From: Candidatus Brocadiaceae bacterium
GTDB taxonomy: Bacteria; Planctomycetota; Brocadiia; Brocadiales; Brocadiaceae
DNA: 32,000 nt
Assembly: GCA_039794405.1 (NCBI GenBank)
Contig: JBDIVL010000002.1
Location: forward strand, 39,403-71,402
Reading direction: 5' to 3'
The position numbers and the translations under genes are program-made. Of this stretch, positions 6,640-31,008 are shown piece by piece. A model generated the notes under the pieces. That model ran no database searches. It had not been told where the DNA came from and saw nothing but the letters and a program-made list of their open reading frames with translations. The first letter of the stretch is position 1. Every line of letters begins with the position of its first letter.

Positions 6640-6668
6640 AAATCTCTATGAATTTTGTTTTTCTACTG

Positions 6669-12096: not shown

Positions 12097-12293
12097 AAAA
12101 AACTCCAAATCCAAATTCCAAACAAATTCCGTAACAATTCAGTTCACCGCAAGGGCACAAAGGACGCAAAGAAAAAACTTACGAATATCCGGCTTCTTAT
12201 AGTATTACTCCGTAAAAACTTCTTTTTGTAAGTTTTTACCTCCCCTTAGTCTCCTCTTTGTGAAGGAGAGAATCGGAAGGCCGTTATTGCTCT

Positions 12294-12371: not shown

Positions 12372-14309
12372 CTATTTTTTACTATTCTGCAATTGCCAGT
12401 GCGGCCTGCCTTCCCATGTAACACGGTTCTCTGCCATATTAAAATATACCTTGTCAGAGAATGTCTTTGATCCCTCTTTCCGCAATTCTGCTTTTGGATT
12501 GCCTGTCATTATGGCTATATCCTGAACCAAATCCCAAATAAGAAATGAGCCGAACCCTTCACAACCATGTAAGACCTTACTAAAAAAATAGGTATTACCA
12601 GTTGCTATGATTTTACTTATTTTTTGGCTGTCATTCAGATACGCATCTATTTGATCACCATTCAACTTCTGTCCACCTCGCGTAGCCTGAACTTCTTCAA
12701 AAAAACTTACTTTTTTCAGGTCGTCATTATAGGTCATTCTCTTAGACCAATCGACTGTCACATCCGATTCTTCAACACCCTCTTCCCCTTTTTCATACAA
12801 ATTTCCTTTGCCTTCACAGAGGACGCTATTTCTGTCTTCATAGAAAAGTACTTTCGGTGAAAAAATCTGCCTTCTATTTCCTTCCCGCAAGATTGCAAAG
12901 GGGTGACCCCTCAAGGTGGTAACTTTATTTTTTGCATTCCAGGTAACCTGGTCCCCAACAGCTTCATTGTATAAACTGCCTTTCTTATCTATAATATGAA
13001 TTTTTTCTGTTGCCTTCATATTTTGCATACTGAAATCATTTTCATTAAATACCACATACAGGTTATCACAAGAAAGGGTAGAATTTCCCCTTCTGACTTC
13101 AATATTTTTTTCGAAGCTAGCCTCCCGCGTTCCATCCAGGAAATTCATTTTCCCTTCCCATTTCACGTTAATGTTTGTATCAGGTTTATCTGTCCTGGCT
13201 GTAGTATCTTTTTCCTTTGATTTTTCTCTGATCTTTGCCTTTAAGCTGCCGGAACTCGGGACATCTATCTTACCAGTATCTCTATAAAAGATCATCTTCA
13301 GTGCATCAATACTCAGCACATCATTAACAAATTCAGCCTTTTGGGCATCCTCCAGGATTGCACTTTGGGTGTTAACATCCCATGTTAAAAAACTTCCCTT
13401 GGCAATTTTTGTCCCCTGGGAGGCGAGTACATTTCCACTTGCAATGGCCTGCTCCGTTTTTTTTGTTTTCTGGTTAAGGAAGATGACTAGTTTATCTGAA
13501 TAAACAGTCGCACTGCCTCTTTTTGTCTGTACATTATCGTTAAAGGTCATAATATTTGCATCTGCACTTCTATCAAATACCAGTTGTCCACTCGATTGGA
13601 TATAGGTTTTCTCAAGAGGCATTTCTTTCGTGTCCGTTTCCTCTAAAGAAGCTGTATCATCAACATCGTCCTTGGAAAGGAAAAAGAGGTCGTTTTTGAC
13701 ACCATCCATTTCCATTTCAGCATTTTTTTTAATCCACATCTTTTTATTAGCAAGGTCTATCTCGCACCCTTGACCGGTAATTACTATACCCTGGCCATGT
13801 ATCGTAACAAAATCATCCGTGGATACCAGTTTTTTTTCAGGCAAGTATCTCATATAGTCTGTATTGAGTTTCGTTTCGAGGTCGAAATGGATAATTACAT
13901 TCTCAGAGAGATAACCCTCGTTCGTAACCCTATTCATCTCACCATTATCAGAAGTAATGAATACGGACTGCGTACCACTTTCAGTATTTGTAGTATCACG
14001 GACCTCAATTTCCGGAGTAATAATCTTATACATATCATTATCCAGAAGAATGGTATCCTTGCCACGCATGATTAAAAATTCTTCTCCTTTTTCATCATAG
14101 TTTGGAATAGAAAGATCTTGTACTGTTTGTGTTACTGTGCCCTGATTACTTTTATTATATACCGGATCATGAATAGCGGGATTTTCCTGAGCAGGATTCT
14201 CCTTCCGGCCCTTTGTATCCTTTCCTGGTTGAGATATAACAAGAGACACAATGATGGTGAGGATACAGGCAATAGGAGTACCAATAAATATATATCTTCG
14301 TTTTGTCAT
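12372..14309 (-). CDS. Membrane-anchored protein with LptC-like and repeated LptA/OstA-like beta-jellyroll segments (putative)
   Basis: There is a single N-terminal TM segment (IFIGTPIACILTIIVSLVI). It is followed by repeated beta-rich modules resembling LptC/LptA patterns (GNV..., TW/TF ... G ... repeats, for example ASGNVLASQGTKIAKGSFLTWDVNTQSAILED). The assignment is from pattern memory only. Confidence 0.45.
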   Translation of the reverse strand: MTKRRYIFIGTPIACILTIIVSLVISQPGKDTKGRKENPAQENPAIHDPVYNKSNQGTVTQTVQDLSIPNYDEKGEEFLIMRGKDTILLDNDMYKIITPEIEVRDTTNTESGTQSVFITSDNGEMNRVTNEGYLSENVIIHFDLETKLNTDYMRYLPEKKLVSTDDFVTIHGQGIVITGQGCEIDLANKKMWIKKNAEMEMDGVKNDLFFLSKDDVDDTASLEETDTKEMPLEKTYIQSSGQLVFDRSADANIMTFNDNVQTKRGSATVYSDKLVIFLNQKTKKTEQAIASGNVLASQGTKIAKGSFLTWDVNTQSAILEDAQKAEFVNDVLSIDALKMIFYRDTGKIDVPSSGSLKAKIREKSKEKDTTARTDKPDTNINVKWEGKMNFLDGTREASFEKNIEVRRGNSTLSCDNLYVVFNENDFSMQNMKATEKIHIIDKKGSLYNEAVGDQVTWNAKNKVTTLRGHPFAILREGNRRQIFSPKVLFYEDRNSVLCEGKGNLYEKGEEGVEESDVTVDWSKRMTYNDDLKKVSFFEEVQATRGGQKLNGDQIDAYLNDSQKISKIIATGNTYFFSKVLHGCEGFGSFLIWDLVQDIAIMTGNPKAELRKEGSKTFSDKVYFNMAENRVTWEGRPHWQLQNSKK

Positions 14310-14626: not shown

Positions 14627-17197
14627 CTATAAAACAGAGGATACTTCTGAAGTTTCAGGCGACAGATTCATAGTGTGAATATCTGTACGGCTTAAAGGCA
14701 GGCCAATATAAAAATCCGTTCCAACACCTTCTTTACTCTCTACGTAGAGAATCCCTTCGTGATCCTTTATGATTCTATACACTATCGCCAGTCCAAGTCC
14801 GGTACCTTTATCCTTATTCGTAAAGAACGGCTCAAAGATATGTGAAATATTCTCGGCAGGAATGCCTGCGCCCTTATCAGAGATTTTAATAATATAGTAG
14901 TGTTTATTATTCAATACATGAAATGAAAATGGGGCAAAGGAAAAGAAAACACAACAAGCGCTTGCCTTCGCCATTTTTCTAAATCCTAAAAGGTTATCTA
15001 TCAAATCCGTATTCACTTTAATGTACCCGCCTCCTGGCGATACATCAATACTATTTTGTAGAATATTTATCAGTACCTGCTTAATCTTATCTTCATCTGC
15101 AATAAGCCGGTACCCTCTTTCTTTTACATCTGCAGTTATCTCCACACCCTTCGTTCGTGCGGTGTTTTTGAATAAATTTACTACATCCATTATTACAGAA
15201 TAAGGGTCCATGTGTTGTAAGATAGGCTGAGAGGGTTTTGCCAAATTGAGCAGATCTTCAATAATTCTGTTAATCCTTTCTATTTCCTTTACAGCAACCT
15301 GCTGGAAGCCCGTGTGAAAGTCTTTATCATCCTTTTTGTATGGAAGCAGTTGAAAATAAGTGTTGATGGCCACAAGTGGATTTTTTATCTCATGGGCAAT
15401 ATTGGCTGCAAGGGTACCAAGATGGGCCAGGCGCTCGGAGTGCTGCTTTTCTGCCTGGAGTGATTTCAATTCTGTAAGGTCTGTCAGGATTATTAAGGAG
15501 CCAAGCCTCTTCCCGTCCTCTGTCTTGAGTTTGGTTGTTGTAACATCGCACGGAATCTTTTTCTCTCCTTCCTCAATAATAGTTTCGATATTATAATATT
15601 CTGTGTCACTTGTAAGGGTGTGCTTCAATATCTGGTACGTCTCTTTACCAAGCTTTTTCAGTATTATTTCGGTGGTATTTTCACCCTTCAGCCCAAGGAT
15701 TCTTTTCGCTTCATTATTCAGAAAGGTAACTTCTCCGTTATTATCCACAACGATAACCCCATTTTTTAAGCTCTGAAGAATATTATCCCTGAAAGTTTTA
15801 GCTTCCCTCAACCCTGAATAGAGACGGGCATTGTTGGCTGCCATGGCTAACTGGCCGGAAAACGCGAGAAACATTTGAATATCTTCCTGGGTAAATATCT
15901 TTTTATTAATCTTCCTTCCCAAAAGGATTATGCCAAAGAGATCATTCTCCTGAAATACAGGGATACAACTGTCTACATCGAGAGAAGCTAATTTATCTTC
16001 TAGTAAATAATCAAATTTGCTGTGAGTAAAACGGCTCAATTGGTCACGAGAGAGAACCGTTTTATTTTGACAAAGCCATGTAACTATCGGTTCTTGTTTG
16101 GAGAAGAACAGGTTATCTCCAGGTGTAAAATTTATCGCTGCTCTCAAATTATAGTGTTGGGTAACCACATCCTTAAGAAGAATGCATATCTTCTCCATAC
16201 CTATAGATTCGTTTAGATACTGGATGGCATGATGGAGAAGCCCGTCTAAATTGTGGATAGATGAGAACATCGTTGTAGAATCACTGAGAATTTTTGGGTG
16301 ACTATATTTCGTACGAAATATAGTCTTTTCAATAATGTGTTGAATTGACTCCCGGGCAGATACAAACGTTATAGCCATTACTATGGTAGAAACAATAGTG
16401 GTAATTGTATTTTTATACTCTGATCCAGGGAGTATACTGCTTAAGAATAGTACAACAGCAAAATAGATTGCACTAAGAGCAATGGATAGAACGACATAGA
16501 CGGTACTCCGTTTAATTATCAGACTGATATCCATAAGGTGATACTTTATGATAGTGTAAGCTACAGTTGCCGGGATAGGAATGGATACCAAGGGTACAAA
16601 CCTCTCAATCTGCCATATGTCTAATATTGGCAAAAGAAAGTTTGTAATAATTGCTATAAAGAAAAACAAGAAAACTCCCAAGAACATGTATTGAATTTGC
16701 AACCTTTTGATCCCATAATAACGCAGACTTTTTTTGTAAAGACCGTATAGTGAATAAATCATGCAGGGTATAAAATAAAGCCAAAAAATATGAAATAGAG
16801 GACCGTATTTGGCACGAGGAAACTGGTTCTCAAAAGAAACCGAATCAACAATGTAGGAAGAAAGGAACGATAGAATCGTACTTACCGTGAAGAAAAAGAT
16901 ACTTAAGTGCTTGTCAACGGATCGCTCTACTTTATCCGGGAAAATAGAGGAAAAAAAGAAAAACGAAGAGGGTATAAAAAGAGCTGCACAATAGACCAGC
17001 TTCAATCTGTAGGCAGCCGATGTAGGATCTGTAGTACAAACCACAAGAAAAATAAAAAATATCCATATAGACAAAACATGTGAAAAGATACAAAATCTTT
17101 TGTTAAGAATACTTACAGGCTCTCTTAAAAACACAAAGATTCCGAGTCCGGCAATTAACAGGCATATCAGAATATATACTATTTGAGTTGCAAGCAC
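14627..17197 (-). CDS. Membrane sensor histidine kinase (multi-TM N-terminus, GAF, PAS, HisKA, HATPase_c)
   Basis: About seven hydrophobic helices span the first ~290 aa. The H-box is AHEIKNPL and the ATPase motifs are DKGAGIP...FEPFFTNKDKGTGLGLAIV. The GTG start lies 11 nt after the upstream KS stop, with GAAGG 6 nt upstream. Confidence 0.85.
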   Translation of the reverse strand: MLATQIVYILICLLIAGLGIFVFLREPVSILNKRFCIFSHVLSIWIFFIFLVVCTTDPTSAAYRLKLVYCAALFIPSSFFFFSSIFPDKVERSVDKHLSIFFFTVSTILSFLSSYIVDSVSFENQFPRAKYGPLFHIFWLYFIPCMIYSLYGLYKKSLRYYGIKRLQIQYMFLGVFLFFFIAIITNFLLPILDIWQIERFVPLVSIPIPATVAYTIIKYHLMDISLIIKRSTVYVVLSIALSAIYFAVVLFLSSILPGSEYKNTITTIVSTIVMAITFVSARESIQHIIEKTIFRTKYSHPKILSDSTTMFSSIHNLDGLLHHAIQYLNESIGMEKICILLKDVVTQHYNLRAAINFTPGDNLFFSKQEPIVTWLCQNKTVLSRDQLSRFTHSKFDYLLEDKLASLDVDSCIPVFQENDLFGIILLGRKINKKIFTQEDIQMFLAFSGQLAMAANNARLYSGLREAKTFRDNILQSLKNGVIVVDNNGEVTFLNNEAKRILGLKGENTTEIILKKLGKETYQILKHTLTSDTEYYNIETIIEEGEKKIPCDVTTTKLKTEDGKRLGSLIILTDLTELKSLQAEKQHSERLAHLGTLAANIAHEIKNPLVAINTYFQLLPYKKDDKDFHTGFQQVAVKEIERINRIIEDLLNLAKPSQPILQHMDPYSVIMDVVNLFKNTARTKGVEITADVKERGYRLIADEDKIKQVLINILQNSIDVSPGGGYIKVNTDLIDNLLGFRKMAKASACCVFFSFAPFSFHVLNNKHYYIIKISDKGAGIPAENISHIFEPFFTNKDKGTGLGLAIVYRIIKDHEGILYVESKEGVGTDFYIGLPLSRTDIHTMNLSPETSEVSSVL

Positions 17198-17208: not shown

Positions 17209-18453
17209 TTATGGATAATTTCTTAATATAAGAACAGCATGTGTTCCCCCTACACTATGACTATTTATAAGCGCTGTATCCATGGAAAATCGCCTTGCAT
17301 GGTTCGGAACATAGTCAAGATCACATTGAGGATCGGGTACAGCCAAATTCATCGTAGGAGGGATGATCCCATTTTTTAGACTAAGGGACGTTGCCACTAC
17401 TTGAAAACCACCTCCTGCAGCAAATGATTGGCCTGTCATAGATTTGACAGAACTTACGGGGATCTTATATGCACGGCTACCAAAGAATGTTTTAAATGCA
17501 TTCGTTTCTGCCACATCATAGCTAGGAATAGCATTTCCGTGAGCACAGATATAATCTATCTCTTCCTTTCTCATTTTGCTATTGATTAGCGCCTGTTCTA
17601 ATCCAATAACTAATCCTGTTCCACTTATATCATTTTGAAAAATATCTTGTGCATCACATGAAGTGGCATAAGATACAATTTCAGCATAAACATCTGCCCC
17701 TCTTTGTAAGGCATGATTCAATTCTTCAAGTACTATTGATGCTGCACCTTCACTCAGTACCATACCATCGCGATTTTTATCGTAAGGTCTAGATGCTTTC
17801 TCAGGTTCATCGTTTCTCTGTGAAAGAATCCCCAAGGCACATAATGCAGACATAATAAAGGGAAAAATAGGTGTGTCCGCACTCCCCACAATTGCTACAT
17901 CTACATCTCCTTGTTTTATCATCCTATAACCCCAATTTACAACTTCGAGCCCGGTTGAACATCCCGATGATAGCGTGGAATTAGGCCCGTTAATTTTTAG
18001 TTCCGAACAAATATAGCCTGTTGTTGCATGCGGTGTAAGTTCTGGAGCAGTAATACGGCTTACTGCCTGAGGTCCTGAATTGAAATATTTTCCGTACTGT
18101 ACTTCATATAAATCATTATCGGCCCCTAATGTAGTTCCAAAACACACGCCGCACCTATCTCTATTTTCCCTACTCAGATCAATATTAGAATCTGCAACCG
18201 CCATCTTTGATGCTGCAATACCAAAGGGGGTAAATCTTGCACTTCTTTTTACTATTTTCGGGTCAACATAATCACAAGGATCAAAGTCTCTTATCTCTCC
18301 CGCAATTCTTGTGCTAAGAGCAGATGGATCAAAGGATGTGATCCTCGATATGCCTGAACGTCCATTAATCAACGCATCCCAGTACGCATCTTTTCCAATA
18401 CCATTGGGTGCTAAGATTCCCAAACCAGTAATGACAACACGCCTTGTTACCAT
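17209..18453 (-). CDS. FabF-fold beta-ketoacyl-ACP synthase paralogue with Cys-His-Gln in place of Cys-His-His
   Basis: RRVVITGLGILAPNG; active-site Cys in GPNSTLSSGCSTG; first His in CAHGNAIPSYD. The KSMTGH motif reads KSMTGQSFAAGG, and NSFGFGG reads NSHSVGG. Confidence 0.85.
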   Translation of the reverse strand: MVTRRVVITGLGILAPNGIGKDAYWDALINGRSGISRITSFDPSALSTRIAGEIRDFDPCDYVDPKIVKRSARFTPFGIAASKMAVADSNIDLSRENRDRCGVCFGTTLGADNDLYEVQYGKYFNSGPQAVSRITAPELTPHATTGYICSELKINGPNSTLSSGCSTGLEVVNWGYRMIKQGDVDVAIVGSADTPIFPFIMSALCALGILSQRNDEPEKASRPYDKNRDGMVLSEGAASIVLEELNHALQRGADVYAEIVSYATSCDAQDIFQNDISGTGLVIGLEQALINSKMRKEEIDYICAHGNAIPSYDVAETNAFKTFFGSRAYKIPVSSVKSMTGQSFAAGGGFQVVATSLSLKNGIIPPTMNLAVPDPQCDLDYVPNHARRFSMDTALINSHSVGGTHAVLILRNYP

Positions 18454-18468: not shown

Positions 18469-20274
18469 TTAAAGAGTATCTTTATTTATTGAAGGAAAAT
18501 TTCTCTCTGCTATCCTTCTGCTATAGTCATTTATCCTTTGATAAACATCCCGAAGAAAGCTGTAGTCCGTAGTTAGTAAGGCTAAATCGCTTCTCATTTT
18601 AAACTCTTCCAATCCTTCTTGGCCTAAAAACCCGGCACTTCTTGCCGCAAGGCAGTGCTCATCTGAAACATTTACGGTATAACCCATTTCTCTAACTTTT
18701 CTCTCCATCAGACCGGCCATCTTTAACATATCCAAGTACTGCATCCCCTGTAAGGAAATATTTAGTTCAGGCCATGTACTTGGGTCCTTCGTAAGCTCAT
18801 ACTCATAGCGCAAAAATGTTTGGACATAATCACCAGGTAAGTCGAAACCATATCGATAAGGTTCTAATTGCCAGGATGTAGCAGGCAACGGTGTACCCGG
18901 AGTTATAAGAACAGAATCAGGCTTATAGTTTTCACCTTTTAGTCCCTGAAGGAAACATAAATTCTCTTCCAAGACTTGCTCATACGTTATGCCACTACCG
19001 TGAGGCAGCGGGCAAGGATAAATAAAACTTACACCCACATCAAGATGTTTCTTTTGATTGTAAGATGCCTGCTTCATGGCCTTAATCGTAAAATACATAT
19101 CCTCCATGCAATTACCTTTATGGATAACCTTTGAGAGTATCTCGTCATTAGCAACTTCAACACCCATGAAAACAGCCTTGAGTCCAGAACGTATTATTGA
19201 CTCGTAAACCTTAACCAACTCATCCATCCGCTCTTTTGCCCTGTTCTCTGCCCGGATAAACATTGAATATTCAATAATCAAACCCTCCTTTAATAATGCT
19301 TCGGCAATGCGCCTGCCCAGAGAAACAGGTGTTACGGAACCTGCAAATCTAAAGAGCCCGATACCCGTCTCATAAATTGTTTTCTTTATTTCATTGAGGG
19401 TTATATCAACATCTCGCGCTTGATATTTTCCCGTAATGTTTGGATGCGTACAAAAATTACACTTCCCGTAGTAACATCCCGAAGACTCGTTTATAACCGC
19501 TATGTTTACCTTCCCGTCATCCTTCTCATATAAGGGAAAAAGTTTTGAGTTTAACGGAACTCTTTGAATAGACGTCTCTTTCACTTTGCCACTACCATCC
19601 CTATATATCAAATTAAAGATCTCACCGGCTTCGGCAAGGGCAGTAATTCTTTTTATTACCTCAGGTTTTGCATATCCTTTAGAATACGACTCCCTTACTA
19701 TGTTCATGATCTTTGCCAAGGTTATCTCACCCTCAACATCTATACAAAAATCAAATGGGCTTTTCTCCAATGCATGTACCTTGAATTGGTTAACCTGCGG
19801 TCCACCGGCAATCACTAAAGTATTCGGGCTTGTTTTCTGAACTTTCCCGGCAAGCTTCTCTGCGTATGAAAACCTGTGGCCAAGCCATGTCTTGATTCCA
19901 AGCACTTTTACCTGATTTTCACATATTTTTTGAACCAGATCATCAATATACTTTTCCATTCTCCCTTTTAAAATCTCTGTGAGATTATCTTGAAGCGCAT
20001 CCCATTCCATCCTCAAAGAGGATGGAGCATCTCCTTTTCTTTCACGAAAAATTTGCTCAGAGAGTTCTGATAATCTTGGTGTGAGATTATTTCTTGTAAA
20101 TGATGTGTAAAATTCGATTCTTGCAGGATCTTCGATGGTAATGTTAAATCCAGCTTCTTTACATGTCCTGGCCAATGTTCCAATACCATTTTCTTTAAAA
20201 CAATCACTAACGGAATAGGCCTTTCCCATAAACGAATTCCAGAGCATAAGATCTATGCCATACAAATTATTCAT
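18469..20274 (-). CDS. B12-binding-domain (class B-like) radical SAM enzyme
   Basis: The N-terminal half is Rossmann-like (VLGIKTW...LVIAGGPQVN). The cluster motif GCYYGKCNFCTH lies at 19450-19476. The start was moved to the ATG at 20274, with GGAG 6 nt upstream. The product is 601 aa. Confidence 0.8.
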   Translation of the reverse strand: MNNLYGIDLMLWNSFMGKAYSVSDCFKENGIGTLARTCKEAGFNITIEDPARIEFYTSFTRNNLTPRLSELSEQIFRERKGDAPSSLRMEWDALQDNLTEILKGRMEKYIDDLVQKICENQVKVLGIKTWLGHRFSYAEKLAGKVQKTSPNTLVIAGGPQVNQFKVHALEKSPFDFCIDVEGEITLAKIMNIVRESYSKGYAKPEVIKRITALAEAGEIFNLIYRDGSGKVKETSIQRVPLNSKLFPLYEKDDGKVNIAVINESSGCYYGKCNFCTHPNITGKYQARDVDITLNEIKKTIYETGIGLFRFAGSVTPVSLGRRIAEALLKEGLIIEYSMFIRAENRAKERMDELVKVYESIIRSGLKAVFMGVEVANDEILSKVIHKGNCMEDMYFTIKAMKQASYNQKKHLDVGVSFIYPCPLPHGSGITYEQVLEENLCFLQGLKGENYKPDSVLITPGTPLPATSWQLEPYRYGFDLPGDYVQTFLRYEYELTKDPSTWPELNISLQGMQYLDMLKMAGLMERKVREMGYTVNVSDEHCLAARSAGFLGQEGLEEFKMRSDLALLTTDYSFLRDVYQRINDYSRRIAERNFPSINKDTL

Positions 20275-20435
20275 AGAAAACTCCGCAAAAATCAAAGTTA
20301 CACAAAAGGCATCTCCTTTTAGTTTTTTCTAACCCAAGTTCCCATCATATGTTTCCTAGCCCGGCAAAGCTGCAACTCAAATCCTTAATTCGAGTAATGG
20401 GGTATTGTTGTGAAAGAAACGCCAATATTCTGTCA

Positions 20436-20699
20436 CTAAACAGATTTCTTATCAATTTTTTGTTTTACCAGATTAGCCATCCCTTGTATGGTTAAATTCC
20501 TACTTGCTTCTTCATTAGAAATCTCTACATTAAACTCCGTTTCAATACTATATAATAAATTTATCATCTCGGCAGATTCTATACCGATATCATCAACGAT
20601 ATGTGAACTGATGGTAATATCCTCAGCATCCATCCTGAGTTCTCTTGATATGATTTTTTTAAGCCTTTCTACAATCAAATCTTCTGTAAGATTTTGCAT
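20436..20699 (-). CDS. Dedicated acyl carrier protein
   Basis: The protein is 87 aa, acidic, with a four-helix pattern. The phosphopantetheine-site region is DDIGIESAEMINLLYSIETEF, where the canonical form is D-S-L. Confidence 0.8.
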   Translation of the reverse strand: MQNLTEDLIVERLKKIISRELRMDAEDITISSHIVDDIGIESAEMINLLYSIETEFNVEISNEEASRNLTIQGMANLVKQKIDKKSV

Positions 20700-20732: not shown

Positions 20733-21974
20733 TTAAAAAACTTTCTTAATCACGATAGTTGAATTATTGCCACCAAAACCAAAAGAGTTTGACATGGCAG
20801 CATTGATTTCCTTCTTTCTGGCTTTATTGGGTACATAGTCCAAATCGCATTCAGTATCTGCATTTTCTAAATTAATCGTAGGAGGGATTATGCTATTTTC
20901 CATAGCCAAGATACATGTTATAAGTTCTACTGCACCGGCAGCACCTATCAAATGTCCTGTCATTGACTTTGTTGAGCTTATCGGTATTTTATATGCATTG
21001 TCTCCAAAAACCGTTTTTATTGCTTTTGTCTCTCCACTATCATTTGCCAATGTTGATGTCCCATGTGCATTAATATAATCAATATCTTGAATATCCAGGT
21101 CGGCGTCTCCTATTGCCAAACGCATTGACTTGCATATCTGTATCCTGTCCTTTGAAGGCATGGTCATATGAAAGGCGTCACTGGTAGCTCCATAACCAGC
21201 TATCTCAGCATAGATATGCACACCTCTTTTTCTGGCATTTTCTTCCCTTTCTAGAATCAAAATGCCGGCACCCTCTCCCATTACAAATCCGTCCCTTTCC
21301 CTGTCAAAAGGCCTGCTCGCCTTTTCAGGCTGGTCATTTCTTTTTGACATAATTCTCAAGGAACAGAAAGCCGCAAGATTAAGCGGAAAAATGGGTGCCT
21401 CAACCCCGCCGGTTAAAACAAAATCAGCTTGGCCCGATTTGATTATATTTCTGGCAATTCCAATAGCTTGATTACCACTTGAACATGCCGTTGCACCAAC
21501 TAAACTTTGACCTGGAAGATTGAAAAAACCCGAGATTACATTTGAGGCATTTCTATTATCTTTAGGAGGCTTAGTCCGTAGGGTATAATTGTTTTTCTCT
21601 ATTGCGGTTTTTTCATCATAATATAATAAAGTTTCAATTCCTACCCCAATCAATACTCCAACCCTGTTTCTATCTATCCGAGAAAAATCCAGACCAGCAT
21701 CCTTTACTGCCATTTGAGCCGCTGCCAGGCCAAATTGTGAACACCTGCTCAAATTATTCGCCAACTCCTCGTGCATGTATTCTCCAGGGTTAAAATCCTT
21801 TACTTCTCCGGCAATTTTCGTAGGATAAGCTTCTGTATCAAACCTTGAGATACTTGATATCCCCGATTTGCCACTCATGGAAGACTTCCAGAATGAATCT
21901 ACTCCAATTCCAATTGGCGTAATAACTCCTATTCCGGTTACTACAACCCTATTCTTTTCCATTCGGTCGTTCAT
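20733..21974 (-). CDS. fabF: Canonical beta-ketoacyl-ACP synthase II (FabF type)
   Basis: All catalytic signatures are present: GATACSSGNQ, NAHGTSTLANDSGE, SSTKSMTGHLIGAAGAVE, NSFGFGGNN. The start is ambiguous (ATGs at 22016, 21992, 21974, 21962). Choosing 21974 gives 413 aa with MNDRMEKNRVVVTG. Confidence 0.85.
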   Translation of the reverse strand: MNDRMEKNRVVVTGIGVITPIGIGVDSFWKSSMSGKSGISSISRFDTEAYPTKIAGEVKDFNPGEYMHEELANNLSRCSQFGLAAAQMAVKDAGLDFSRIDRNRVGVLIGVGIETLLYYDEKTAIEKNNYTLRTKPPKDNRNASNVISGFFNLPGQSLVGATACSSGNQAIGIARNIIKSGQADFVLTGGVEAPIFPLNLAAFCSLRIMSKRNDQPEKASRPFDRERDGFVMGEGAGILILEREENARKRGVHIYAEIAGYGATSDAFHMTMPSKDRIQICKSMRLAIGDADLDIQDIDYINAHGTSTLANDSGETKAIKTVFGDNAYKIPISSTKSMTGHLIGAAGAVELITCILAMENSIIPPTINLENADTECDLDYVPNKARKKEINAAMSNSFGFGGNNSTIVIKKVF

Positions 21975-22102
21975 TTTAGATGAAACCCTCATTTGTTTAT
22001 TCGTTAATTCCACCATATCGCATACAATGAACAAAAGGAAAGTATATTTTTTAGCACCGCGTATATACTTTTTCGTGAATAGTCACTATTCCACCACTAC
22101 TG

Positions 22103-23332
22103 TCAAAAACGTTGAAAAACGAATGATACATTATTACCGGCATAATCGAAGTTATTTGAAAGCACGATATTAATGGGTCGGAAATCAGACCTTTTAAGAA
22201 TGGAAATTGATGTGCACTTTGGATCGATATTCTCAAGGTTGTTTGTTTGGGGTAAAATATGTTTTCTCAGGGATAACAATGAGAAAATTATGTTAATCGG
22301 ACCGGAAGCACCTATAGAGAATCCCAAACTACCTTTTGTTGAACTTACAGGGGTTTTCCGGTCATTATCACCTAAAATGGATTTTATTGCTTCTGCTTCC
22401 TCTACGTCTTCCCTTATCCCGGATATGCCACTCGCATGAACATAATCAACACTTACAGGATCAAGAGATGCAGAGGACAACGCCTGTTTTATACAAGAAA
22501 CCTTAGAATAGAAATTTGTATTTTTCTGGTTTTCAGAATTGTTATGACAATAAGAGGTTCCAAATCCAATGATCTCGCCATAAATACTGGCACCCCTTTT
22601 TTCTGCGCTCTGAAGTGTTTCCAGGACAACGATACCAGCCCCTTCACTCAGGATAAAGCCTTTTCTTGCAATATCAAAAGGACAGCTAGCCCGATTTGCA
22701 TCAGCACTATTTGGTTGAAATAAACCTTTAGGTCCTAATTCCTCAAAAACTCTTGGTAACAATGGTGCCTCAGTTCCACCCGCAACTATTGCATCGATAT
22801 TATGGCGTTGCAGTGTATTAAATGCCTGAATGATACTGTAATCCCCTGAACACCCACCACATGAAAATCCAACGTTAGGACCTTTAAGGTTTAATTCTAT
22901 TGCAACCTCACCTGACGGAGCATTTGCAAGATTATTTTGCATTAAGAGCGGATGAACCCTTCTCGGACCTTCAAGGTAAAGCACCTGAAGTTGTTTTTCG
23001 ATACTATAGAGTCCACTATAAGCACTGCCAATGAAAACACCAATTTTTTCCCTATCAAACTCTTCACCAATTTTTGCATCAGCTAATGCCATCTTCGCGG
23101 CAGCCAGGGCAAAACTCGCAAAACGATCGACTTTATCTTTTTTCGTTTCAGGAACGTATGTTTCGAGTTCCGGGCCGGATACTCTGCCAGCATATGTTCT
23201 TATATTAGCACCTTCTATCTCAAATTCCTTTATTCCCGATATACCAGACAGATATCTTTCCCAGTTTTCATGTATACCAACACCCAGCGGACTAACAATA
23301 CCAACGCCAGTAACTACTATTCGCTTTTTCAT
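22103..23332 (-). CDS. KS-fold protein lacking the canonical catalytic residues (chain-length-factor-like partner)
   Basis: The KS fold is clear (KKRIVVTGVGIVSPLG, SEGAGIVVLE). In an ungapped register, GPNVGFSCGGCSG places Gly at the catalytic Cys position of FabF GPSISIATACTSG. AHGTST reads HASGIS (His to Ser) and KSMTGH reads KGSLGF (His to Phe). Confidence 0.75.
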   Translation of the reverse strand: MKKRIVVTGVGIVSPLGVGIHENWERYLSGISGIKEFEIEGANIRTYAGRVSGPELETYVPETKKDKVDRFASFALAAAKMALADAKIGEEFDREKIGVFIGSAYSGLYSIEKQLQVLYLEGPRRVHPLLMQNNLANAPSGEVAIELNLKGPNVGFSCGGCSGDYSIIQAFNTLQRHNIDAIVAGGTEAPLLPRVFEELGPKGLFQPNSADANRASCPFDIARKGFILSEGAGIVVLETLQSAEKRGASIYGEIIGFGTSYCHNNSENQKNTNFYSKVSCIKQALSSASLDPVSVDYVHASGISGIREDVEEAEAIKSILGDNDRKTPVSSTKGSLGFSIGASGPINIIFSLLSLRKHILPQTNNLENIDPKCTSISILKRSDFRPINIVLSNNFDYAGNNVSFVFQRF

Positions 23333-23390: not shown

Positions 23391-25529
23391 CTAAATGTAG
23401 TCTTTAAGAAAATCTGAAATAGGTAAAAAGACATAAACCTTACTACCTTTTCCCTCCTTAGAAGAGATATAGATAAATCCTTCATGTTCTTCAATTATTC
23501 TCTTGGATATTGAAAGTCCAAGTCCGATATTATGCGGCTTTGTTGTAAAGAAAGGAAGGAAGATGTTTTTGAGTTCATCCCGGGGAATACCGGCGCCCGT
23601 ATCCTGGATTATTACTTCAACGTACTTCAATGGTAACCCTTTCAACGCACTAGTACCATTGTATCTGCTATGAGACCCGCCATTATTGAGAAAACTATGT
23701 GATCCGGCAAGCCTCTTCTCATCCAGTAAGACATGTGAAATCTCAGCAGTCAATGTCCCGCCATCGGGCATAGCCTCTACTGCATTAAGCACCAGGTTTG
23801 CCAATACCTCTTCCAATTTTTCACAATCCCCTTGTATGGCTGCGGTTTCTTCCGCATACTTTTTCAGTAACTTGATATTGGATTCTGCCATCCTATCCCT
23901 ATAGGAGTCCAGCACCTGATCTAAGAGAAGCCTGATATCTGCTTTTCTTCTCATAAGATCTCTATTTTCTCCCAAAGTTGTCAGCTTTTTTGTCATAAGG
24001 TCGAGATTACTTACCTCTCTCCGCGCCACATGAGAAAATTGTTCCATAAACTCTTTATCTTCTATTTTTTCAGGGAACAAATCCATAAAGGTCTTAACAG
24101 CAACCAGGTGGTTTTTAACGTAATGGGCCATATTATTACTCAGCATGCTGAAGAACGCCTTTTTCTCGAGATCTTTTACCTTTAACTCCAGTTTCTTAAT
24201 CTCGTTTAAATCGGATAATACCATAATCGCGCCAAGTTCCCTGTCGGCATCTACCAGCAAGGATGTACTAACAGCATACGTAGAATGGGTTACCGGATCA
24301 CGAATCTCGCTCATCCTATAAGTTTTTTTATCTTTCAAGGTCCTCAAAATAACATCGGCAAAAACAGAACCGATATGTTTGACATCCTTCCCCAGCACTT
24401 CATGCGAGGGAATATGTAACATTTTTGAGGCGCTTTGATTAAAAGTATTAACCTTACCGTCACTATTTATAGCAATCACACCACAGGGAATATTTTCTAA
24501 GACGTTCTCATTATGAACCTTCCTGACATTTATTTCCTGGTAAAGAAATGCGTTCTCCACCGCCATACCTATATATCCTGCCAGCATAGATAACAATTCA
24601 ATATCTTCATCAAAATAGGCCTTTCCCGTAATCTTGTTTCCTAAGGCAATCACACTAATAATGTTCCCCTTAGCGAAGATCGGTATACACAGTTGTGCCT
24701 GCAAAAGGTTCATCTCTCTCTGTATCCTGATAGCCTCACGCCCGGTTAATCTTTCCGAAGCGATTTCTCTATCGATAACGTCCTTACTTAATATCTGATG
24801 GTTCCTGGTTAGCCATGACATAATACCATGCTCGTTTAAGAAGCAAATATCCCGAAATGCCCTTTCGTCTAAGCCAAGACAGCGATAAGGTCTGCTTATC
24901 CCTTCCTCCCTGTTTATCAATATGAACACTACCCTTCCAACCCTAAATATCTCAGCCAATGCCTCAACAGTAAGATCAACAAGCTTCTCAAGATTATATA
25001 CATGTGTTAACGCCTTCGAGAATTTCTGAAACACTTCCTTGTAGGTAAGGCGGATATCACCAGACCTCATTTGTTTATGAGAGGTCAATTCATCCGATAA
25101 TCCATTCTCTTTACTCATCGGCTTTAAATTTTTTACCTGCAATTGAGTAAAATTCAACACTCGTTTTAATTCCTGCCTTTCTAAAGCCCTTTCTAAAGCC
25201 TGTTGTATCATCTCCTTTTTCAGAGGTTTTTCAAGAAGTTCATAAGGTCTTACTCTTAAGGCTTCTTCAGATAATACTGGCTGGGCTGCAGGAACTATTG
25301 CAATAATCGTTGGATCAATTTCTATTTGCCGAAGATTCTCGATGAGTTTATTAGCCCCGTCGTCACGTAAAATAACATCCAGGAAAGCCACATCAATGTC
25401 TTTTCTAAGGAATATCTGTAATGCTTCTTCGGATGTTTTTGCGGTGTGAATTATACAGTCTCTGTTAAGAGACCTTTTGAGGAAGTTGTGAATGGAATTA
25501 TCATTTGAGATCACCAGAAATGAATGCAT
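23391..25529 (-). CDS. Hybrid sensor kinase: N-terminal receiver, GAF, PAS, HisKA, HATPase_c
   Basis: Receiver features are FLVISND...DVAFLDV. The H-box-like motif is MAHYVKNHL and the ATPase motifs are DTGAGIP...FLPFFTTKPHNIGLGLSISKRII. The start was moved to the ATG at 25529, preceded on the minus strand by G8 and a 7-nt spacer. Confidence 0.85.
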   Translation of the reverse strand: MHSFLVISNDNSIHNFLKRSLNRDCIIHTAKTSEEALQIFLRKDIDVAFLDVILRDDGANKLIENLRQIEIDPTIIAIVPAAQPVLSEEALRVRPYELLEKPLKKEMIQQALERALERQELKRVLNFTQLQVKNLKPMSKENGLSDELTSHKQMRSGDIRLTYKEVFQKFSKALTHVYNLEKLVDLTVEALAEIFRVGRVVFILINREEGISRPYRCLGLDERAFRDICFLNEHGIMSWLTRNHQILSKDVIDREIASERLTGREAIRIQREMNLLQAQLCIPIFAKGNIISVIALGNKITGKAYFDEDIELLSMLAGYIGMAVENAFLYQEINVRKVHNENVLENIPCGVIAINSDGKVNTFNQSASKMLHIPSHEVLGKDVKHIGSVFADVILRTLKDKKTYRMSEIRDPVTHSTYAVSTSLLVDADRELGAIMVLSDLNEIKKLELKVKDLEKKAFFSMLSNNMAHYVKNHLVAVKTFMDLFPEKIEDKEFMEQFSHVARREVSNLDLMTKKLTTLGENRDLMRRKADIRLLLDQVLDSYRDRMAESNIKLLKKYAEETAAIQGDCEKLEEVLANLVLNAVEAMPDGGTLTAEISHVLLDEKRLAGSHSFLNNGGSHSRYNGTSALKGLPLKYVEVIIQDTGAGIPRDELKNIFLPFFTTKPHNIGLGLSISKRIIEEHEGFIYISSKEGKGSKVYVFLPISDFLKDYI

Positions 25530-25952
25530 TGGCAGACCCCCCCCTCTTCCCAATTACCTGTAAAAGTATTTGTACTTATTACAATAGGCAGATGAAATGA
25601 ATGATGTCTGAGTAAAAAATGGTATAGATTTATAGAGTATGATACCCAGAATGTCCACCATTGTCAATAACGAGTGTTTTATATAAGTTAAATAACCTCA
25701 AAATAAAATATCATAGAGCATTGCAAAACTTCCCGAAAAACAGAGAGCTTCTAAAGCCTACAACAGTGACATTCTGTTTTTATAAGACTATAGTTTACTG
25801 AAAAATTAAATTTTTATTGTTTTTATCGTCAAAATATATTACTTTTTTAGGGCTTTTCCAAATAATTTTTTCACCTTTTATCAGGTAGAATAAAATCATT
25901 GTATGAGATTGGCATTAAAAATCTGAATTCATAATTGGAGGAACTACTATAT
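25530..25952. promoter_or_regulatory. AT-rich divergent control region between the kinase/KS operon and the HD-GYP/FadL operon
   Basis: This 423-bp spacer separates divergently oriented genes and has no credible ORF. Individual promoter hexamers could not be assigned with confidence. Confidence 0.4.
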
Positions 25953-26984
25953 ATGGAACAAAAAATTACATCATCAAACATATTAGTAGTGGATGATGAT
26001 CTCGGCGTAAGAGAATCATTAAAAATGATCCTAAAAGACAGGTATTTTATTTCTACTGCATCAAATGTTGATGAAGCCGCCAATGCCTTGAAAGAAATTA
26101 GCCCATTAACAATCTTCCTGGATATAAGAATGCCCAAATCGAATGGGCTTGATTTTCTTAAAAGGATGCAATCTACTAACCCTTCGATTCCAATAATTAT
26201 CATTACGGCATTTCCTTCTTCACAAACTGCAATAACGGCATTGAGAAATGGTGCCTTTGATTATATCGTGAAACCCTTTGAGCCATCAGAAATACTTGAA
26301 ACAGTAGAAAGGGCTTCGCAGCATTATGCTGAATTATCGGAAAAAGACCGGCTTATCTATAACCTGAGAAAGGCCGTTCACAAAAATTTCTTTTCAACGA
26401 CAGAAGCACTCTTGCTCGCAATAGATGCAAAAGACTCATACACTGCAGGTCATTCGAAAAGGGTATCTCAACTGTTTTCCTTTGTTGCAAAAGACCTCGG
26501 CATGAGCCAATCGAAAATTGAAGTCTTTCAATATGGAGCATTTCTCCATGATATCGGGAAAATAGGTATCAGCGATAATGTACTAACAAAGCCAGGTATC
26601 CTTACCGACGAAGAATTCCTTTTTATAAAGCGCCATCCTGAAATTGGCTATAAAATTCTTGAACCTATCAATTTTTTAAAAGAATGTTTATTAATCGTTC
26701 GTCATCACCATGAATGGTATAACGGTACTGGTTATCCAGATGGACTCAAAGGAACAGAAATTCCTCACGAGGCTACTATCCTTTCTATCGTAGACGCCTA
26801 CGATGCGTTAACCACTGATAGGCATTATCGCAAAAAATATACCCACCCAAATGCACTTGCGATTATTACAGAAAGAATACATACTCAATTTACACCAACC
26901 TTGACGGAGAAGGTTCTTACTTCCATTAACACATATCATAGAATTAATACGAGTGATGAACCATTTGAAGAGTTTTCAAAATGA
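25953..26984 (+). CDS. Response regulator with HD-GYP output domain (RpfG-like c-di-GMP phosphodiesterase)
   Basis: Receiver features are ILVVDDD...FLDIRMP...K. HD is LHDIGKIG and the HD-GYP signature is HHHEWYNGTGYPDGL. The start was moved to the ATG at 25953, with GGAGG at 25937-25941. Confidence 0.85.
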   Translation: MEQKITSSNILVVDDDLGVRESLKMILKDRYFISTASNVDEAANALKEISPLTIFLDIRMPKSNGLDFLKRMQSTNPSIPIIIITAFPSSQTAITALRNGAFDYIVKPFEPSEILETVERASQHYAELSEKDRLIYNLRKAVHKNFFSTTEALLLAIDAKDSYTAGHSKRVSQLFSFVAKDLGMSQSKIEVFQYGAFLHDIGKIGISDNVLTKPGILTDEEFLFIKRHPEIGYKILEPINFLKECLLIVRHHHEWYNGTGYPDGLKGTEIPHEATILSIVDAYDALTTDRHYRKKYTHPNALAIITERIHTQFTPTLTEKVLTSINTYHRINTSDEPFEEFSK

Positions 26985-27045
26985 AAATGATTTGTGCAGT
27001 TAAGTATCTCAACATAAATATTTGTATCTTTATTTTCCCAAAGAT

Positions 27046-27087
27046 GGTTCAATCTTGCAGATTGAACTATCCCTGAGAATGCTCCTG
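27046..27087. repeat. GGTTCAATC hairpin plus CCCTGAGAATGCTCCTG module, 17 nt upstream of the FadL-like start
   Basis: ggttcaatc-ttgca-gattgaac lies at 27046-27067. ccctgagaatgctcctg lies at 27071-27087 and matches 14560-14576 at 16/17. Confidence 0.65.
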
Positions 27088-27104
27088 ATAAGGGTACAAA
27101 AATT

Positions 27105-28460
27105 ATGTTCAGGTACTTAAATAATATTTGTATACAGGTGCTTACGATAAAACGACCGCTCGTATTTTGTATTTTTACTCTTACTCTCCTTTCATCCTTT
27201 TTTGAAAGAGCAAATGTATTTGCACAAATAGCATCAGGATTGCATAACCCCGCCCTGGGGGCTTCAGCGCTCGCTCAAGGAAACGCCTTTGCAGCCCGTG
27301 CGAATGATACATCTGCCATAGCATTTAACCCGGCCGGACTTATGCAACTTGAGAGACCGGAGATCTCCTCAGGTGCCAGCGTCCTCTTCTCATCAGTAGA
27401 ATATCACAATACCAATATTGATGAAGAAATGGAGGCAATAAATGTTGTTCCGAATATGTATTTTGCAAGTCCAATTATTGAAAACAAACTATCTGCAGGT
27501 ATCGGAATAATCGCCCCTTATGGCCTCGATGGTGAATGGGATGATGACGGATTCTCCAGATTTGTAGTTACAGATTTTAGTTTAAGAATTATTAATATAA
27601 ATCCAACTCTAGCCTTCAAACCATTTTCTTTCCTCTCTTTCGGTGCAGGGTTTAACTATTATTATGCAGATGTTGAACTAGGAAAACATATGAATACAGG
27701 TTTAGTTAATTCAGTCTTAACCGGTTCCATCCTGGATAATAGCACTCCTGAGGGAATCCAGGACCTTGATATGCATGGAGATGCTTTTGGATATAATGCT
27801 GGTATGCTCTGTAATATTACTCCACGTCATAGTATTGGGGTTTCATTTCGAAGCAAGGCAGATATAGATTTTGAAGGTAAGTTGAGACTCTCCAACCTGA
27901 GCGGCGCAGCCGCATCGTTATTTGGTTCCCATACCTTTGTTTCAAAAACTTCCACAACTGTTACAATACCGGAAATGCTCTCATTTGGTTATGCATATAA
28001 ACACGGAAGTCTCTGGAGTATAGAAGCAGATGTTCAGTGGACAAACTGGTCCCGGTTCGATATCCTCAAATCCCATTTCAGACCAACAAATCCCTTGTTA
28101 GAGGCAAATAAGGAGGATATTCGAAAATGGCATAACACCCTGGGGTTTGCTCTTGGTGGTGAATATAAGTTCAATGAAGCTATAAAAATACGAGGTGGCT
28201 ATGCCTTTCATGAGTCTCCGGTTCCAGGCGAAACCTTTGAACCCTCGGTCCCTCAAAGTAGCAGGCATGCGTTATTTACAGGATTCGGATATAGTTGGGG
28301 AAAAAATTTAAACAAATGGATAGATTTTGCTTATGGAATTGTATTCTACGAAAACAGAAAAATAGATAATTCTGTAGGGGATTCCGTACAAGGTCCTATT
28401 GATGGACATTACGACCTTATTACACATATCGCAGCTATAAATTTTAATTACAGGTTTTAA
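27105..28460 (+). CDS. Outer-membrane hydrophobic-compound/long-chain fatty acid channel (FadL/OMPP1/TodX family)
   Basis: A signal peptide is present. The family motif is AIAFNPAGLMQL, the sequence has alternating beta-strand character, and the C-terminus is INFNYRF with a terminal Phe. Confidence 0.75.
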   Translation: MFRYLNNICIQVLTIKRPLVFCIFTLTLLSSFFERANVFAQIASGLHNPALGASALAQGNAFAARANDTSAIAFNPAGLMQLERPEISSGASVLFSSVEYHNTNIDEEMEAINVVPNMYFASPIIENKLSAGIGIIAPYGLDGEWDDDGFSRFVVTDFSLRIININPTLAFKPFSFLSFGAGFNYYYADVELGKHMNTGLVNSVLTGSILDNSTPEGIQDLDMHGDAFGYNAGMLCNITPRHSIGVSFRSKADIDFEGKLRLSNLSGAAASLFGSHTFVSKTSTTVTIPEMLSFGYAYKHGSLWSIEADVQWTNWSRFDILKSHFRPTNPLLEANKEDIRKWHNTLGFALGGEYKFNEAIKIRGGYAFHESPVPGETFEPSVPQSSRHALFTGFGYSWGKNLNKWIDFAYGIVFYENRKIDNSVGDSVQGPIDGHYDLITHIAAINFNYRF

Positions 28461-29784: not shown

Positions 29785-31008
29785 TTAAATAGCCACCTTT
29801 GCTCTACTTTTCTTTTGAGTTTCAGGCTTAAGACCTATCTCTTCATCGGTAAGATAACAAGCAGGGTCATGCTCCCACATGTCGCCATAGTATGCTTCTG
29901 CCCTTGCCCTGAAATTTCCACTGCATATATTAAGCCATCTGCACTTCGAACAGCGCCCTTTGATATATGGGTTTTTGTTCTTCAATCTGGCCATTAACTC
30001 GTTAGAAGTGTCCTCCCAAATCTCGCTAAACTTCCTCCTCCTTATATTTCCGAAGGAATATTGCCTCCAGAACTGATCTGCATGTACCTCACCATCCCAA
30101 CTTATACAAGCAAGCCCTTTGCCAGAGCTGTTTCCTTCATTCCACTGGAGAAGTTCAAGTACATCTTTCGCCCTTTTGGGATCTTCCTTCAAGAGACGTA
30201 GATATACGTATGGCCCGTCGGCATGATTATCTACTGTGAGTACCTCTATTTTTCTTCCCCTGTCATGTGCTTCCCTCGTCTTATCCATTATAAGATCCAC
30301 AACTTCCCGGGTTTCCTTATGAGAAAGATCTTCATCTATTAAATTAGAACCCCTGCCTGAGTAGACCAGGTGATAGAAACAGACCCTTGGGATACCCTCT
30401 TCCTCAATAAGCTGGAAAATACCAGGGATATCGTGAGCATTCCTTTTATTGATGGTAAAACGCAGGCCTACCTTGATTCCTACAGACATACAATTTCGTA
30501 TACCCTCTAAGGCTGCTTGAAACGCACCAGGAATGCCACGGAAACGATCGTTTGTCTCTTTAAGGCCATCAAGACTTATTCCTACATAGGAAAGTCCGAA
30601 TTTTTTTAATTCATTCGCCTTTTCCCTTGTAATGAGTGTGCCATTCGTACTAATAACAGCCCGCAAACCCTTCTCTTTAGCATAACCAATGAGTTCAAGA
30701 AGATCAGATCTCATAAGAGGCTCTCCACCTGAAAAAAGAATTACAGGAGCCCCATAATTTGAAAGGTCGTCCAACATAGCTTTTGCCTCTTGTGTGGATA
30801 ATTCATTCGGATATTCAATATCCTTTGATTGAGAATAGCAATGGATGCATTTTAAATTACAACGTTGCCCTACATTCCACACTACAACAGGTTTTTTATC
30901 CTGAGAAAATTGTAATAAATGTGATGGTAGCTTCTTAGATTCTCTACCATATCGCAATGCATCAGAGGGTTCTACCGTACCACAATATAACTTTGATATA
31001 CCAATCAT
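29785..31008 (-). CDS. Radical SAM protein with a SPASM/twitch-like C-terminal Cys region (NirJ / AhbC / AhbD family, heme-modification type)
   Basis: The CX3CX2C motif is QRCNLKCIHCYS. The N-terminus ISKLYCGTVEPSDALRYG recalls NirJ/Ahb-type proteins. C-terminal cysteines are CISWDGEVH...GRCSKCRWLNICSG. Confidence 0.65.
   Translation of the reverse strand: MIGISKLYCGTVEPSDALRYGRESKKLPSHLLQFSQDKKPVVVWNVGQRCNLKCIHCYSQSKDIEYPNELSTQEAKAMLDDLSNYGAPVILFSGGEPLMRSDLLELIGYAKEKGLRAVISTNGTLITREKANELKKFGLSYVGISLDGLKETNDRFRGIPGAFQAALEGIRNCMSVGIKVGLRFTINKRNAHDIPGIFQLIEEEGIPRVCFYHLVYSGRGSNLIDEDLSHKETREVVDLIMDKTREAHDRGRKIEVLTVDNHADGPYVYLRLLKEDPKRAKDVLELLQWNEGNSSGKGLACISWDGEVHADQFWRQYSFGNIRRRKFSEIWEDTSNELMARLKNKNPYIKGRCSKCRWLNICSGNFRARAEAYYGDMWEHDPACYLTDEEIGLKPETQKKSRAKVAI

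Follow-up and report, generated by a model that had tools for sequence, protein, structure and literature searches.

Why would a bacterium keep a ketosynthase (KS) stripped of its catalytic residues directly upstream of one that still has them? The question is raised by a locus of a Candidatus Brocadiaceae bacterium (NCBI GenBank assembly GCA_039794405.1, contig JBDIVL010000002.1), of which we analyzed a stretch of 32,000 nucleotides (positions 39,403 to 71,402 of the forward strand). This whole stretch is called the window below, and all coordinates are window positions on the minus strand unless a plus sign is given. A 409-residue FabF-like KS without a catalytic triad (22103..23332, the dead KS) is followed by a KS that retains one (20733..21974, the active KS) and by an acyl carrier protein (ACP). 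We propose that the two KSs probably form an obligate FabF-derived heterodimer resembling the pairs that a KS makes with its chain-length factor (CLF), with the dead KS as the CLF-like subunit. This view is based on sequence conservation and on analogy with a pair from anaerobic ammonium-oxidizing (anammox) bacteria. Together with the adjoining ACP, the heterodimer would make up a cassette of three genes, by which a defined acyl chain is assembled on a dedicated carrier.

Catalytic Site of the Dead Ketosynthase

The upstream protein keeps the KS fold, as had been proposed from its sequence. Pfam identifies full-length N- and C-terminal KS domains, and the AlphaFold2 (AF2) model (pLDDT 87, pTM 0.91) has FabFs as its nearest structures, with TM scores of 0.92-0.93. 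A KS fold without the active-site Cys is one feature of a CLF, and the dead KS shares it. Against the FabF model TIGR03150 it scores 335.1 bits, below the equivalog threshold of 493.75, and the catalytic triad is absent. HMMER aligns it with P. aeruginosa FabF over the full length, ungapped and with top posterior confidence across the three catalytic motifs. In the active-site elbow, S157-C-G-G-C-S-G163 (22844..22864), the sequence SCGGCSG faces TA(C)TTG, which places G160 (22853-22855) at the nucleophile position and C161 (22850-22852) at +1. In the second motif HASGIS faces NAHGTS, with S301 (22430..22432) at the first catalytic His. In the third, KGSLGF faces KSMTGH, so that K333 is kept and F338 takes the place of the second His (K333-GSLG-F338, 22319..22336). 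The coordinates of these residues were checked by translation. The gate is altered as well. Opening of the FabF gate is driven by the hinge glycine of the GFGG gating loop together with a loop-2 Asp (PMC7138838). In the dead KS, the site of the FGFGG loop reads F395-D-Y-A-G399 (22136..22150), in which the hinge Gly is missing and the gate Phe is replaced by Tyr; the residue equivalent to loop-2 Asp265 is also lost in the alignment.

The AF2 models provide a second view of the register. The strand spans residues 153-156 and the helix starts at 159 in the dead KS, compared with 157-160 and 163 in the partner. This offset of four residues equals that between G160 and the partner's catalytic C164, and C161 therefore lies one residue past the nucleophile position. 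The sequence-only reading had named, as grounds against itself, a gapped alignment that would put a flanking Cys at the nucleophile. We checked for this and found the alignment ungapped on both sides, up to the SG..AI..AF helix, with C161 at +1. Cys161 as the true nucleophile, brought into place by a shifted alignment, was thereby ruled out as the main explanation.

The same substitutions run through a whole family. About 55 clusters (90% identity) match the dead KS at 59-100%, and the next hits, at 39% or less, are ordinary FabFs. The named family hits belong to Brocadia, Brocadiaceae, Scalindua japonica or Planctomycetota, and the orthologues are 59-89% identical. When 1.84 billion representatives were searched with a family profile, the family itself came up as a single 50% cluster, and the one distant relative recovered was P0226 (42% identity). 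Column counts were taken over 62 family members. The nucleophile column holds Ala in 45, Gly in 11, Thr in three, Val in two and Pro in one, and Cys never. The first-His column is Ser throughout (61/61), and the second-His column is occupied by Phe (30), Leu (21), Tyr (8), Cys (1) or Val (1). The catalytic Lys is kept in 61/61, and in 58 of 61 a Tyr takes the place of the gate Phe. These counts, together with the alignment and the AF2 register, confirm Gly, Ser and Phe at the Cys, His and His positions, as first read from the sequence. Judging from this conservation, the dead KS is under strong constraint, and its dead catalytic site is real and ancient.

The cysteines of the family require separate consideration. 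The two that flank the lost nucleophile (C-G-G-C) had been singled out as a departure from the Gln of a classic CLF. Gln is indeed absent from the column, but the first of the two cysteines is variable (Cys 37, Ser 20, Asn 5) and only the second, C161, is conserved, in 61 of 62 members; one family cluster (P0041, representing 21 sequences) has Ser there. P0226 keeps the Cys at +1 (STGFCSG) and reads VHPRLMQNN where the family has VHPLLMQ. A further Cys, C217, replaces the Arg of the ASRPFD motif in 59 of 61 members. Two more conserved cysteines, C280 and C373, are frequent in ordinary FabFs as well. That the four together make up an Fe-S or metal site was considered and rejected, since only C161 and C217 are specific to the family.

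These residues invite the idea that the upstream protein is itself catalytic through Cys161, assisted by Ser301 and Lys333, and works, for example, as an acyl-ACP transacylase, a loader or a thioesterase-like enzyme. The near-invariance of Cys161, its persistence in P0226, the invariance of Ser301 and Lys333, and the second family-specific Cys in place of the ASRPFD Arg would all suit such an enzyme. However, we regard this as improbable. C161 sits at +1 and not at the elbow, both by the ungapped alignment and by the AF2 helix register, and it is replaced by Ser in cluster P0041. Neither His is left, and the elements that open the site to acyl-ACP, the GFGG hinge and the loop-2 Asp, have disappeared too. 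Moreover, the +1 position of ordinary KSs holds a small buried residue (Ala, Thr or Ser), and a Cys there may be purely structural.

The Active Partner and the Helix-Loop-Helix Asymmetry

The downstream gene had been described as carrying every FabF catalytic signature. This description holds for the catalytic residues and the gate: the active KS retains C164, H304, H341, K336 and the GFGG gate, has full-length ketoacyl-synt N and C domains in Pfam, and passes TIGR03150 with 522.8 bits against the cut-off of 493.75. Its start is ambiguous, as the open reading frame (ORF) from a TTG comprises 433 residues (20733-22034) and the ATG chosen by other gene callers gives 427. The N-termini of the orthologues favor the ATG at 21974, and we use the resulting protein of 413 residues.

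The description does not extend to the helix-loop-helix, the dimer contact of FabFs, which has been remodeled. The active KS lacks the FabF segment GPxRVSPFFVPMMI. Residues 111-148 (21531..21644) read YYDEKTAIEKNNYTLRTKPPKDNRN, in which the replacement begins YYDEKTAIEKNNYTLRTKPP and is accompanied by a four-residue deletion. Among the matches listed, replacement and deletion are shared by all 97 relatives with 68-98% identity and by all five of a second group with 56-59% identity, and none of the canonical FabFs among these hits shows them. Only 4-6 of 17 residues in this segment are hydrophobic in the active KS, compared with 9-11 of 19 in FabFs. The form GPxR[VI]SPFF[VI]PMMI, whose presence would imply a symmetric homodimer, is not found in the active KS. 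The AF2 model of this protein is good overall (pLDDT 87, pTM 0.90), with pLDDT below 50 for residues 115-140. In contrast, the helix-loop-helix of the dead KS is of near-canonical length and contains the invariant segment VHPLLMQ (22937..22957), with H127 conserved in 60/60 family members, L130 in 59/60, and M131 and Q132 in 61/62 each.

The significance of this asymmetry becomes apparent from the ladderane Cluster I pair of anammox bacteria, amxFabF2/amxFabFmut (amxFabFhet; KustE3605/3606; PDB 9s5h/9s5i), whose subunits co-purify. Together they decarboxylate malonyl-ACP and form acetoacetyl-ACP, whereas the separately expressed proteins are inactive. In FabF dimers, as in amxFabFhet, the substrate tunnel in a subunit is covered by the helix-loop-helix of its neighbor. 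amxFabFhet has a CLF-like architecture, and mutating the helix-loop-helix of its dead subunit shifts the probe-length preference (Granatino et al. 2026, bioRxiv 10.64898/2026.05.19.726425). Since the dead subunit's helix-loop-helix lines the live tunnel in that crystal structure and tunes the probe-length preference, the asymmetry in the window pair can be read in terms of selection. The contribution of the dead subunit to the live site would have remained under selection, while that of the live subunit to the dead site would have decayed. A homodimer of the live subunit, whose own helix-loop-helix is short and polar, would then lack a normal hydrophobic tunnel wall. Thus, the reciprocal asymmetry argues for an obligate KS/CLF-like heterodimer.

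The proposed division of labor is as follows. The downstream subunit would do all the chemistry behind its GFGG gate: C164 would accept the acyl group, and H304, H341 and K336 would then serve to decarboxylate malonyl-ACP and to carry out the Claisen condensation. The upstream subunit, with no nucleophile, neither His and no working gate, would be non-catalytic. Its VHPLLMQ segment would wall the acyl tunnel of the live subunit and set the length or shape of the chain accepted, and the acyl-ACP product in the window is then probably modified by the adjacent B12-binding radical S-adenosylmethionine (SAM) enzyme (B12-rSAM) and passed on by a third ketosynthase, KS3.

Several observations weigh against the heterodimer. 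Net charges, compared for three segments across all families, show no clear pattern, and nothing like the charge complementarity reported for amxFabFhet is seen between the two helix-loop-helix motifs or the helices that they interact with. The cluster contains no ketoreductase, dehydratase or enoyl reductase. The amxFabFmut of S. brodae crystallized as a homodimer, so dead KSs can self-associate (bioRxiv 10.64898/2026.05.19.726425). The low AF2 confidence at the partner's helix-loop-helix may reflect an alignment of canonical FabFs only. Finally, the near-invariant Cys161 and Cys217 may point to a role of the dead subunit beyond that of a wall.

The crystallized homodimer, the near-canonical length of the dead helix-loop-helix and the missing electrostatic asymmetry between dead and active KS could also be taken to mean that each protein forms its own homodimer. 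The dead KS would then bind acyl-ACP or act as a scaffold without catalysis, or regulate the B12-rSAM or KS3, and its adjacency to the active KS would reflect shared regulation only. We find this quite unlikely. The polar, shortened helix-loop-helix of the active KS is ill-suited to a homodimer tunnel, and the separately expressed Cluster I subunits show no activity. In addition, the pair occurs together in three unrelated cluster contexts (described below), and the B12-rSAM and KS3 also occur without it.

A Three-Gene Cassette and Its Relation to Known Pairs

If the two KSs form an obligate heterodimer, how constant is their association? The order dead KS, active KS, ACP was found in all nine independent full-length loci beyond the window organism's own, namely four Brocadia-type loci, four of a second type (type B) and one distant locus (L091). 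No full-length locus examined lacked the ACP after the KS pair. The same order is repeated on contigs L081 and L082, which belong to the window organism itself. On one short contig (L092), a KS-domain ORF lies directly downstream of the dead KS, but this partner is fragmented and the contig ends before the ACP, which is compatible with the order. A scan of the genome collection with the generic pattern MKKR[IV]V[VI]TG returned mostly ordinary FabFs, with orthologues at 4 of 80 loci. The closest named relatives are Brocadia, Wunengus and Jettenia (70-77% identity), and the Brocadia orthologues match the dead KS at 70%, the active KS at 77%, KS3 at 73% and the B12-rSAM at 74% identity.

Three cluster contexts can be distinguished. 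Type A, represented by the window and the four Brocadia-type loci, has the same B12-rSAM (18469..20295 in the window) and KS3 (17209..18453) after the cassette, all between the same two kinases. In type B (L089, L090, L093 and L094), the dead KS, KS and ACP are followed by a FeeM-like N-acyl amino acid synthase and a 530-residue rSAM, which is about 25% identical to that of the window and carries the motif CSYGRCGFC; in L093, an MMPL transporter and DUF1329/DUF1302 proteins come next. The type B genomes are probably marine or Scalindua-like anammox bacteria, and the gene content suggests that the product of the type B cluster is an exported N-acylated lipid. The distant cassette (L091:2005-10821, GC content 46%), whose dead KS and active KS are 42% and 59% identical to those of the window, directly follows a NifH-like and two NifD/K-like (Oxidored_nitro) genes, a zinc-ribbon rSAM, a 4HBT thioesterase and a hydrolase.

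Kuenenia hertensis, Jettenia and Loosdrechtia (L084, L087 and L088) have neither the cassette nor a remnant of it at this locus, where the arrangement kinase, rSAM, KS3, kinase is retained. In two of these three loci the upstream kinase is shortened to about 495 residues, and K. hertensis has a sigma-54 activator instead. Because the cassette is missing while the rSAM and KS3 stay, the cassette is an accessory unit, with rSAM-KS3 as the core across anammox genera.

This distribution also bears on whether the dead KS pairs with KS3 and not with the adjacent active KS. KS3 shares the operon of the dead KS in the window, its helix-loop-helix is also non-canonical and its gate Phe is missing. Nevertheless, such a pairing is highly unlikely, as Jettenia, Loosdrechtia and K. 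hertensis have KS3 but no dead KS, and the type B and L091 loci, which have no KS3, keep the dead KS and its adjacent partner.

The two KS lineages were compared in a neighbor-joining tree with 100 bootstraps, which contained dead and active KS lineages and no CLF sequence. The dead clade alone received support of 100, and of 90 together with the L091 relative; the partner clade, including L091 and the 56-59% group, received 100. The dead and live clades were sisters in none of the 100 bootstraps. The tree indicates that the two KS lineages have co-diversified and travelled together for long, and that they are no recent tandem duplicate.

How does this pair compare with known systems? The nearest parallel is amxFabFhet, with which it shares the anammox host, a FabF-derived dead KS directly upstream of an active KS, an ACP of its own and a B12-rSAM. 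The differences are considerable. The two pairs are not orthologous (KustE3606 and Broful02170 represent amxFabFmut): the dead KS scores 182 bits against 9s5h_C and 263 bits against P. aeruginosa FabF, so that the Cluster I chain ranks below about 35 ordinary FabFs; the active KS scores 330 bits against 9s5h_B and 404 bits against B. subtilis FabF. amxFabFmut has Val or Thr for Cys and Asn, Glu or Cys for His, whereas the window family has Ala or Gly, Ser, and Phe, Leu or Tyr. The window cluster lacks the FabZ, the phytoene-dehydrogenase homologue and the TIGR04072 rSAM of Cluster I. Furthermore, in the window pair it is the live subunit that carries the remodeled helix-loop-helix, and electrostatic asymmetry is missing. 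That the window pair is simply the Cluster I pair was thus ruled out by the bit scores against the PDB chains, the substitutions and the cluster content.

The type II polyketide synthase (PKS) and polyene-type pairs (actinorhodin KS/CLF, 1tqy; Iga11/Iga12, 6kxd; ApeO/ApeC) likewise combine an active KS with an adjacent Cys-less partner of KS fold, and we propose that the window partner, too, shapes the chain tunnel at the dimer interface. In contrast to these systems, the window family has no Gln in the nucleophile column and the dead KS comes first in the gene order. The KS and CLF of type II PKSs are sister paralogues, which the two window clades are not. Membership of the dead KS in the CLF clade of type II PKSs was rejected, since its closest matches in both sequence and fold are FabFs. 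No CLF chain appeared among the best 60 sequence hits or the best 50 fold hits, and it was the actinorhodin KS, not the CLF, that was found at 1.2e-47. In gene content, nothing in the window resembles an aryl polyene cluster.

Ordinary FabFs offer the third comparison. Both window proteins have the fold and length of a FabF, and the downstream one has Cys-His-His-Lys and GFGG and scores above the TIGR03150 cut-off. On the other hand, the upstream protein falls below it and has no catalytic triad, the downstream one lacks GPxRVSPFFVPMMI, and the pair has its own ACP and lies outside the housekeeping fab operon. What the sequence-only reading had described as a possible KS/CLF pair is therefore retained in part, with the control of chain length or priming suggested there as a prediction. 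The fixed adjacency with the ACP, the co-diversification and the paralogous anammox precedent support a KS/CLF-like pair, but one that stands outside the PKS CLF clade and whose active partner is no canonical FabF. From these comparisons, the pair appears to be a separately evolved version of the KS/CLF-like theme and the second such pair in anammox bacteria.

A gene set of K. stuttgartiensis, kuste2802-2805, has been annotated as an 'ACP synthase', a B12-rSAM, a FabF and a 'non-canonical FabB' (Rattray et al. 2009, PMC2649909; Javidpour et al. 2016, PMC4790861). The likeness to the window is one of outline only: a B12-rSAM beside a FabF, a non-canonical KS and another 'synthase', described as nearly unique to anammox bacteria. 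As far as the tabulated residues of Kuste2805 go (Phe163, Asn298, Lys328, Glu333 and Gln342), they fit no member of the window dead-KS family and look more like amxFabFmut. The rSAM-KS3 locus of K. hertensis is without the KS pair, as described above, and the cluster look-ups gave no K. stuttgartiensis names.

As a separate observation, many proteins of 780-880 residues in the representative library (P0227, P0229-P0235 and others) are tandem KS-KS fusions, with an active N-terminal domain and a C-terminal domain lacking the catalytic His residues. They are covalently fused KS/CLF-like pairs.

Associated Enzymes, Neighboring Genes and Significance

What chemistry might the cassette serve? The dedicated ACP (20436..20699, 87 residues, Pfam PP-binding) carries its attachment Ser in DDIGIES, which aligns with the DSL Ser of solved ACPs. 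The enzyme that follows has the Pfam domains B12-binding and Radical_SAM. Its ORF coordinates (18469..20295) are those of the frame opened by the first TTG, but translation probably begins at the ATG at 20274, for a protein of 601 residues. Against TIGR04072, the family of ladderane Cluster I, its score is 55 bits (cut-off 360), and no solved relative was found by sequence. Its cluster motif, CYYGKCNFC (19450-19476), follows the pattern CX4CX2C, which replaces CX3CX2C in 98 of 98 family members, distant ones included, and also in the seemingly unrelated rSAM of the type B loci. The family is present in all named anammox genera hit. DPANN archaea, Latescibacteria and Spirochaetes contain distant relatives (33-37% identity). 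A relative with 35% identity (P0218, L085:7001-9418) is fused to a PlsC-type acyltransferase, and its locus also encodes PlsX, more acyltransferases, acyl-AMP ligases, a FeeM-like enzyme and two further B12-rSAMs. This fusion, within a locus of lipid-acyl enzymes, supports a lipid substrate.

KS3 (414 residues) always follows the rSAM, also in genera without the cassette. It has C165 and H305, Gln342 at the second His position (His in one Brocadia orthologue) and HSVGG for FGFGG. Cys-His-Asn enzymes provide an analogy for condensation despite an altered second His, and by this analogy KS3 may still condense.

In transcription order, the cluster reads kinase, dead KS, active KS, ACP, rSAM, KS3, kinase, with intergenic gaps of 58, 128, 33, about 140, 15 and 11 nt. 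No convincing terminator was found between the cluster genes, and promoter and terminator counts were no better than in shuffled sequence. Given the layout, it is plausible that the run from kinase to kinase forms a single operon. The upstream kinase (23391..25553) is a histidine kinase with response-regulator, GAF and PAS domains according to Pfam, with syntenic counterparts in Brocadia, Jettenia, Loosdrechtia and K. hertensis. The downstream one (14627..17197), a histidine kinase with 7TM, GAF and PAS domains in Pfam, is syntenic in all type A loci.

Several genes outside this run were also noted. Beside the cluster, at 25935-28460 (+) and 29785-31008 (minus strand), are genes for an HD-domain response regulator, an outer-membrane transporter of the FadL/TodX type and a SPASM radical SAM enzyme, which are syntenic in Jettenia, Loosdrechtia and K. 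hertensis. A 645-residue ORF (12372-14309) combines an LptC domain with several LptA/OstA-type domains and may be a fused bridge protein for lipopolysaccharide transport. A 603-residue protein (10303-12114) has a glycerophosphodiester phosphodiesterase domain and a long run of HEAT/PBS-lyase repeats. A urea transporter gene adjoins an IS200-like (Y1 transposase) fragment at 5746-7211.

A broader interpretation takes up the nearly constant company of these enzymes. The trio of dead KS, active KS and ACP would be an independently evolved mobile condensing cassette, nearly always coupled to CX4CX2C B12-rSAMs, that makes an acyl-ACP for radical C-C or C-methyl chemistry on lipids. KS3 or the FeeM-like N-acyltransferase would hand the product on, and Cys161 and Cys217 would have a role of their own, such as redox chemistry, metal binding or holding an intermediate. 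Taken as a whole, this proposal is rather unlikely. Under it, anammox bacteria could use the cassette to make, as a separate piece, the non-linear portion of ladderane-type or mid-chain-branched fatty acids.

To our knowledge, the routes to ladderanes and other odd anammox lipids have not been established, and we know of no biochemically characterized anammox condensing system other than the Cluster I heterodimer. KS/CLF-like pairs and an excess of odd FabF paralogues were already known in anammox bacteria, and little would change if the pair described here were ordinary. What the present locus adds is a second pair of dead and live KS with its own ACP, of separate origin and tied to a different B12-rSAM and to KS3, itself atypical. 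As a small set of three to five genes, the cassette lends itself to reconstitution in vitro. Its presence in the window organism and in Brocadia-type and type B genomes, and its absence at the locus in Jettenia, Loosdrechtia and K. hertensis, provide a natural contrast. The cassette itself, its mobility, the helix-loop-helix signature and the link to the CX4CX2C B12-rSAM are concrete and open to experimental test.

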